This document shows positions 16,670 through 17,752 of a stretch of 49,669 nt of DNA, one piece after another; position 1 is the first letter of the stretch; each line of letters begins with the position of its first letter. The notes under the pieces were generated by a model. That model did not search any database, was not told the DNA's origin, and was given only the letters and a program-made list of their open reading frames with translations. Made by a program: the position numbers and the translations under genes. Source of the stretch: Escherichia phage PhiR68_2; sequence record PV340576.1; one strand, written 5' to 3'.

Positions 16670-17752
16670 TTAGAACTGGTAAACCATACCTACAGCAACG
16701 ATATCATCGGTAGCAACGCCAGATGCTTTCGTGAAATCGCTCTTATCAATCAGGTTGATTTTGTAATCAACAAAAGTGGACATATTTTTGTTGAAGTAAT
16801 AGGTTGCACCTACATCAATATATTCAACCAGGTCCTGATCACCCCACGCACCCAAGTCTTTTCCTTTAGATTGCAGGTAAGCAACGGACGGACGCAGACC
16901 GAAGTCGAACTGATATTGTGCAACTACTTCGAAGTTTTGTGCTTTGTTGGCAATATGGTTATTACCAAAAACAGTCATGTTCTGGGTTTCAGAATAGGTG
17001 GTAGCCAGATAGATGTTGTTCGCATCATATTTCAGACCAGCTGCCCATACTTCAGCATTTTGACCAGATGCATTCAGGCTGTTGTTACCGTAGATAACCT
17101 GATTATTAGTGCGGTCAGATTTAGCATAGGTTGCACCTACACCGAATCCTTCATACTCATAAGTAGTGGAGAAACCGAAACCATCACCATTAGCTTCAGT
17201 TACGTCAGTGCGGTCATTTTTACCCTGATACTGAGCAGCAAAGTTCAGACCATCAACCAGACCAAAGAAGTCGTTGTTACGATAAGTTGCAACACCAGTG
17301 GTGCGACCAGTCATGAACACATCTGTTTGGGTCCAGGTATCGCCACCGAATTCTGGCAGAACGTCAGTCCACGCACCGATGTCATATGCTACACCGTAGT
17401 TACGGCCGTAATCGATTGAGCCGTAGTCCCCGAATTTCAGGCCTGCAAATGCAAGACGGGTTTTGTCTTTGGAGGAGCCTTGAGATTCAGCGCGGTTGCC
17501 TTTGAATTCATATTCCCACTGACCGAAACCAGTCAGTTGATCGTTGATTTGGGTTTCACCTTTGAAGCCAAGACGGGCATAAGTAGTATCACCATCATCT
17601 GCATCATTAGAGGAGAAGTAGTGCTTGGCATTAACTTTCCCATATAGATCCAGCTTGTTACTGTCTTTATTATAAATTTCAGCTGCCTGAGCAGACATCG
17701 CCATCAGTACTGATGCAGCTACAGCAGAAATTGCCACTGTTAATTTTTTCAT
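16670..17752 (-). CDS. nmpC: OmpC/OmpF-family general porin NmpC (intact), 360 aa with signal peptide
   Basis: Signal peptide [30 protein letters not shown]..., C-terminal ...VAVGMVYQF beta-barrel signature. Confidence 0.9.

Follow-up and report, generated by a model that had tools for sequence, protein, structure and literature searches.

Prophage-borne general porins of the NmpC/Lc type are already known and very common in Escherichia coli, nmpC and lc having been on record since the 1980s and the ipeX element since 2006. In the cryptic prophage DLP12 (qsr') of E. coli K-12, nmpC lies between the late-gene antiterminator gene and the lysis genes; the MG1655 annotation gives it as a pseudogene that IS5B splits in two, and the 434B record, whose late region comes from DLP12, carries the remark 'IS5 insertion after codon 346'. 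Phage PA-2 carries an intact counterpart, lc, which encodes porin Lc ('protein 2', J02580.1) between Q and the lysis genes. Lysogenic conversion and replacement of OmpC have reportedly been shown for PA-2. Among wild strains, the nmpC copies of CFT073 are strongly upregulated at 37 C at both the RNA and the protein level, and NmpC is expressed and abundant in AW1.7 (PMC12890032). For late transcription, the relevant precedents are the Stx phages, in which dRNA-seq and Term-seq place the start of pR' 258 nt before the 3' end of tR' and 'closely associated with Q' (PMC7547250), and phage 82, where transcription from pR' meets an extended -10-like pause element soon after its start (PMC5001585; PMC4914094).

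The DNA analysed here, referred to as the window, is the whole 49,669-nt stretch of Escherichia phage PhiR68_2 (PV340576.1). Its argU-adjacent start, its gene content and its DLP12 gene order identify it as a full-length lambdoid prophage at the DLP12 (argU) site, complete from integrase through tail fibres. The left edge lies directly past the argU tRNA gene and is followed by the integrase gene (68..1231, - strand), by the recombination, immunity, replication and nin blocks, by Q, lysis, terminase, head and tail genes, and by J, lom and the tail-fibre genes up to about 47 kb; appY and ompT form the right end. The order ybcL-ybcM-ybcN-ninE-ybcO-rusA-ylcG-quuD-porin-essD-rrrD-rzpD/rzoD-bor is that of K-12 DLP12, and the chromosomal site and the orientation of the porin gene are the same as well. 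The flank from ybcL to Q, with the ipeX 3'UTR (12142..16708), is 99.2% identical to K-12. Unlike DLP12 of K-12, the prophage in the window retains its head, tail and recombination genes. The porin gene is convergent with Q and divergent from the holin gene (Table 1), and downstream of the holin gene follow the lysozyme and spanin genes and then a Bor/Iss lipoprotein gene on the - strand. ARAGORN detects no tRNA genes anywhere in the window, so the tRNA cargo that Stx phages carry between Q and S is lacking. The arrangement also occurs in a functional phage: in the isolate PhiR34_1, a temperate phage that was propagated on MG1655, the 2.6-kb Q-porin-holin segment is 99.9% identical to that of the window, with three differences in 2601 bases, and the porin coding sequence and the Q segment are identical.

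Several features of the prophage outside this segment deserve mention. Further cargo is carried as emrE (a small multidrug efflux pump), ybcL (PEBP family), ybcM (AraC family), bor/iss (a serum-resistance lipoprotein) and lom (an Ail/Lom barrel), at 10457..10789, 13035..14393, 19544..19837 (- strand) and 39670..40269. The window lacks, at 19891..20182, the ybcV and ybcW genes that K-12 has between bor and ylcI, and about 1.3 kb of K-12 DNA (positions 8951..10235 of the K-12 segment) is missing. In a near-identical prophage of ST2350, exo, the replication gene P, ybcK, the tail gene K and the macro-domain/tail-fibre region are frameshifted, internally stopped or interrupted by IS3, the last being an insertion in the macro-domain gene; all are open here (2708..3388, 9389..10090, 11044..12570, 34721..35473 and 40328..43980, respectively), the macro-domain gene being uninterrupted. 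Because these genes are open in the window, the prophage may still be inducible.

Table 1. Positions in the window, strand and basis of the features of the Q-porin-holin region.
Feature	Position	Strand	Basis
Q, late-gene antiterminator, QuuD type, 127 aa	16098..16481	+	Pfam Phage_antitermQ, E=4e-53; RefSeq annotation of the identical segment
Porin mRNA 3'UTR, ipeX-type element (3' end approximate)	16503..16669	-	near-identity to K-12 and PA-2; folding
Predicted intrinsic terminator hairpin of the porin transcript, GGGGCGTTGCAACGCCCC then ATTTTTAATAATTTTT	16515..16532	-	terminator scan
Porin coding sequence, 360 codons and stop, ATG start	16670..17752	-	six-frame ORF list; Pfam; structure matches; alignments
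Predicted signal peptide, codons 1-23	17684..17752	-	structure alignment; PA-2 record annotation
AT-rich porin upstream region, 5'UTR and candidate promoter	17753..18121	-	GC; conservation; PA-2 record
Putative late promoter module pR'	18123..18207	+	homology to Stx2 phage; terminator scan
pR' -35, TTTACG	18123..18128	+	sequence
pR' -10, TATGCT	18145..18150	+	sequence
pR' start (predicted), near AAGAG	18154..18158	+	homology to Stx start site
Sigma70 pause-type -10-like element TGgTTACTT, TGGTTACTT	18159..18167	+	sequence
Predicted pR' terminator, GC hairpin with T run to about 18207	18181..18202	+	terminator scan
Holin, EssD/S21 (phage-21) type, first late gene	18342..18557	+	Pfam Phage_holin_2_1, E=3.5e-35; annotation

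The reading frame of the porin contains no internal stop or frameshift, and the product is a full-length general porin of the OmpC/OmpF/PhoE family. Residues 29-360 match positions 1-337 of the 337-position Pfam profile Porin_1 (PF00267; E=3e-153, 510.6 bits against a cut-off of 23.7). The solved chains of OmpK37, OmpC, OmpK36, PhoE and OmpF are matched at E=1e-137 to 1e-116; for the PDB porins as a whole the range is E=1e-137 to 1e-108. The mature N-termini of the solved porins all align to residue 24, and residues 1-23 are for this reason assigned as the Sec signal peptide, which ends in SAQA, an A-x-A-type end, ahead of AEIYNK and leaves a mature protein of 337 aa; the length agrees with the 69-nt sig_peptide annotated for PA-2 lc, whose 23-residue signal peptide is the same. 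The chain closes with VGMVYQF and hence with a terminal Phe. An AlphaFold2 model built with 32 homologues, of moderate confidence (mean pLDDT 69, pTM 0.68), has 16 long strands besides a short N-terminal one. Short turns and eight longer connections join them in alternation, and this points with moderate confidence to a 16-strand barrel of the known porin topology. In the predicted constriction loop L3, the motif LPEFGGD occupies residues 132-138; L132, P133, E134, G136, G137 and D138 are invariant and F135 is kept in at least 90% of the 32 homologues. The column entropy of L3 is the lowest of all the loops (0.17 vs 1.0-1.8 elsewhere). Porin_1, the predicted 16-strand barrel, the L3 sequence PEFGGD and the C-terminal Phe are shared with OmpD of Salmonella enterica (about 80% identical to the window porin), OmpC, OmpF and PhoE of E. 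coli, and OmpK36 and OmpK37 of Klebsiella. The genes of these relatives belong to the chromosomal core and have regulation of their own, whereas the gene in the window is phage-borne and coupled to ipeX.

The alignment to K-12 nmpC that the preliminary description had proposed was made against the two pseudogene pieces joined with IS5 removed (365 aa). End to end, 329 of the 365 columns are identical, and the window porin differs by two in-frame deletions, of three and two residues, with neither frameshift nor stop. The K-12 IS5 maps to about 16727/16728 of the window, 19 codons ahead of the stop, which agrees with the remark in the 434B record; the window copy has no insertion. The preliminary description is thus correct that an insertion element disrupts K-12 nmpC, and it was equally right that the porin here is a full-length member of the OmpC/OmpF family with a signal peptide and a C-terminal aromatic residue, in a frame uninterrupted over 360 codons.

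The window porin is 90.1% identical in amino acids both to K-12 NmpC and to PA-2 Lc, whereas Lc and K-12 NmpC are 98.9% identical to each other; it therefore falls into a second, separate allele group of this gene, Lc belonging to the other. Its first 148 residues are identical to those of K-12 NmpC, and the substitutions cluster in loops L4-L8: the window porin departs from Lc at 32 positions, and 24 of them fall in these predicted loops (Fisher p=4e-6, the loop share being 123 of the 337 mature residues), as do both deletions. Against K-12 nmpC, dN/dS is 0.10 overall, and 0.04 for the non-loop residues of the C-terminal 200 codons; in the loops, synonymous divergence is saturated. These values indicate a barrel under purifying selection with diverged outer loops L4-L8. 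The comparison suggests a working pore with a diversified surface, as would be expected under exposure to phages and antibodies, and the gene is a real and probably functional NmpC/Lc-type prophage porin gene.

The sequence 3' of the porin gene is the ipeX element, conserved and strongly folded. It differs at about 6 of 190 nt from the sequence that follows nmpC in K-12 DLP12 and lc in PA-2, and it folds at -63.2 kcal/mol (z=-8.4), a value reached by none of 200 shuffled sequences. An Rfam scan of 15800..19000 (E<=1) gave no match in the ipeX region. The preliminary description did not mention this 3'UTR. Within it lies the predicted terminator of the porin transcript, 138-155 nt past the stop codon, with a GC hairpin and a T run on the porin strand; on the + strand, that of Q, the same hairpin is followed by an A-rich and not a T-rich run. 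On the other side of the gene, the upstream region of about 370 bp is 92-99% conserved across all porin-carrying phages (96.8% identical to that of PA-2). Because the porin gene is transcribed against the flanking operons, it requires a promoter of its own; consensus and relaxed scans of this region gave weak candidates only, for example a -10 AATAAT ending at 17826. Two CRP-type misc_binding sites annotated in the PA-2 record of 1986 map to 17861..17881 and 18157..18177 of the window. The GC content is 41-50% in the porin gene and 29-35% upstream of it, against 50-54% in the nin region and 53-55% in the sampled terminase/head-gene region.

The position of the late promoter sets the location of the porin relative to the late transcription unit. 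Comparison with an Stx2 phage (L008) revealed that 18122..18204 of the window is 77% identical over 83 nt to L008 3421..3503, which corresponds to the start of the Stx pR' transcript, from which the small RNA StxS comes. A start 258 nt ahead of the annotated terminator T run (L008 3709..3714) would fall at L008 3454-3458, the AAGAG also found in the window. As in phage 82, an extended -10-like pause element follows a few bases into the predicted transcript, a likeness drawn solely from the published description of that layout. In SfIV the same 54 nt recur at 98% identity about 150 nt upstream of a holin gene of a different type, and about 2.5 kb of unrelated genes separate them from Q. A literature search found no paper giving the exact sequence of this module. 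The hairpin at the end of the module is the only terminator-like site on the + strand ahead of the holin gene in the terminator scan; Rfam, run over 15800..19000 at E<=1, returned for it just a chance-level Trp_leader hit (E=0.6). The same hairpin is present in Stx phages whose transcript runs on for 258 nt to a second terminator, for which the window has no counterpart, and its efficiency as tR' is therefore uncertain.

Seen from Q along the + strand, the pR' module lies downstream of the porin and points away from it, which places the porin between Q and pR'. It is likely that the cassette occupies this interval and that late transcription begins some 190 nt ahead of the holin gene and heads away from the porin. 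The preliminary description had set the porin, as a moron, inside the leader of the late operon. Its gene order, with the porin between Q and holin on the opposite strand and convergent with Q, agrees with the gene calls, and the term moron is apt for a self-contained unit that has a terminator of its own and AT-rich DNA upstream; the leader, with pR' between porin and holin, is not where the gene appears to lie. Its upstream region of 17753..18300 holds in part: GC is 0.29-0.35 over 17800-18250, but the last 180 nt or so are pR', its terminator and the holin leader and, given pR' at 18122..18204, do not belong to the porin upstream region. If this placement is true, the cassette separates the antiterminator gene from its loading site and sets the porin promoter back-to-back with pR'. 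The second of the two PA-2 CRP-type sites overlies the early transcribed region of pR' and the pause element (gaGTGGTtacttcGTCACAc), and pR' would yield a constitutive RNA of about 55 nt. It is conceivable, but quite unlikely, that the AT-rich and temperature- or catabolite-responsive control region of the porin also modulates lysis transcription, or that the pR' RNA of some 55 nt is regulatory like StxS; the literature yielded no description of such a role for the control region or the pR' RNA in DLP12-type prophages.

The borders of the cassette can be placed from the same comparisons. Q and the pR' module are adjacent or overlapping in the Stx2 phage, where the module overlaps the Q stop codon, and 1.66 kb apart in the window, where the module lies past the porin cassette; homology stops after Q codon 120 and resumes at the -35 of pR'. 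Q is 78% identical over 126 aa to that of the Stx2 phage and 52% to that of SfIV, and the tails diverge past codon 120 at RLEMD, so that the last seven Q codons lie beyond the left junction of the cassette. DNA homology with the phage 1H12 group likewise stops at 16457. A 120-residue Q core ending in RLEMD is common to the window, the 1H12 group, SfIV and the Stx2 phage, and the short tails that follow are unrelated. The shared core and the unrelated tails point to a recombination junction inside the 3' end of Q, at about 16458 (codon 120/121). The porin thus appears to be carried on a self-contained moron cassette of about 1.66 kb, approximately 16458..18121, with its own terminator.

Phage 1H12, which has genes for a Blc lipocalin and YbgA after Q, was considered as a second case of cargo between Q and pR' and was rejected. 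A promoter-like TGGTTATCAT stands directly after its Q together with a terminator resembling Stx tR', and the 1H12 cargo is for this reason placed downstream of the late promoter. The two elements lie within positions 395..570 of the 1H12 locus (L009), with the Blc and YbgA-like genes beyond. Since this layout differs from that of the window, both architectures, cargo before pR' and cargo after tR', exist for this Q type.

Taken as a whole, the locus is very likely an intact NmpC/Lc porin allele on a self-contained cassette between Q and pR' of a DLP12-site prophage. The preliminary placement within the late-operon leader would need pR' next to Q, with Q-modified polymerase running antisense through the porin to the holin gene. 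A late promoter and terminator directly after Q, with cargo downstream, are indeed found in lambda, in Stx phages and apparently in 1H12, but the + strand from Q to the porin yielded no promoter-like site in the scan, that interval is taken up by the conserved ipeX/terminator region of the opposite strand, and the sequence homologous to Stx pR' ends about 140 nt before the holin gene; we regard such a leader as very improbable. That the gene is simply a chromosomal ompC paralogue near prophage remnants, as the RefSeq name ompC or 'porin OmpC' might suggest, can hardly be true, for it lies inside a complete prophage that extends from integrase to tail fibres, the same segment is found in isolated phage genomes (35 of them with at least 80% of the Q-porin-holin stretch), and its closest named relatives are NmpC, Lc and OmpD.

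Two further readings accept the cassette and concern its use. The intact porin might be silent, repressed by nucleoid proteins on the AT-rich upstream DNA and useless in ordinary lysogens. The upstream region is very AT-rich, no strong porin promoter emerged from the consensus scans, and Prilipov et al. in 1998 are said to have called nmpC of E. coli B a 'quiescent' porin gene in the title of their paper. Silence is nevertheless unlikely in our view, as the dN/dS of 0.10 and the conserved constriction loop point to selection on the protein, intact copies are annotated among the matches listed, and the CFT073 nmpC copies are among the outer-membrane proteins most strongly induced at 37 C (PMC12890032). 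Alternatively, the cassette could be kept mainly for the benefit of the host, through permeability to antibiotics or bile, heat resistance or antigenic variation, and not for phage exclusion. Overexpression of NmpC is reported to give the heat resistance of AW1.7, porin changes alter antibiotic entry (PMC12890032), and allele variation in the surface loops fits immune pressure as well as phage pressure. An OmpC-type J domain and the linkage to the OmpC-lowering ipeX fit exclusion more specifically, although the two readings are compatible; a mainly host-directed role is possible, if on the whole doubtful.

For the intact cassette between Q and pR', homology with PA-2 lc and K-12 ipeX, together with published nmpC expression in wild strains, leads to the proposal that in the lysogen a promoter of the porin gene within the AT-rich region would drive its transcription leftwards. 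The product should be exported and assembled as a trimeric diffusion pore like its relatives, and the ipeX part of the same transcript would lower host OmpC and OmpF, so that the host porins are exchanged for the phage porin. Late transcription would start at pR' and lead away from the porin, and only read-through of the early pR operon past Q would cross it, in antisense. The C-terminal 250 aa of the tail-tip protein J (36102..39599; C-terminal part 38847..39596, + strand), its receptor-binding end, are 91% identical to J of lambda h434 and 53% identical to that of lambda. This points to OmpC as the receptor in place of LamB, OmpC being the receptor of phage 434 (PMC3509688). A phage that enters via OmpC and, once resident, replaces it would exclude OmpC-dependent relatives; with J of the phage-434 type and 434 using OmpC, such exclusion is the likeliest benefit to the phage for which the cassette was selected. 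Changes in host permeability, in surface antigenicity and in heat tolerance would then be side effects or co-benefits that may matter as much. The exclusion role itself is carried over from PA-2, where it reportedly goes back largely to the literature of the 1970s and 1980s.

The exact 360-aa protein is already present at NCBI as 'porin OmpC [Escherichia coli]', where it represents 2741 sequences clustered at 90% identity, and the database names of its close relatives are NmpC, LC or OmpD. Of 5426 complete E. coli genomes, 2503 cover at least 80% of the porin coding sequence; 369 records are at least 99% identical over it, and coverage of the Q-porin-holin segment reaches at least 80% in 2394 genomes and 35 phage records. 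The analysis adds no new biology; its sole refinement is that the cassette is placed upstream of the late transcription unit and not within it. What it does bring out is that the RefSeq label 'porin OmpC' masks a phage-borne NmpC/Lc identity, and that almost half of the complete E. coli genomes carry a near-full-length copy of a gene that is broken in the K-12 reference. Together with this porin gene comes ipeX, which regulates the porins of the host itself. As porin exchange touches phage susceptibility, antibiotic entry and surface antigens, it is worth knowing which strains carry an intact copy.
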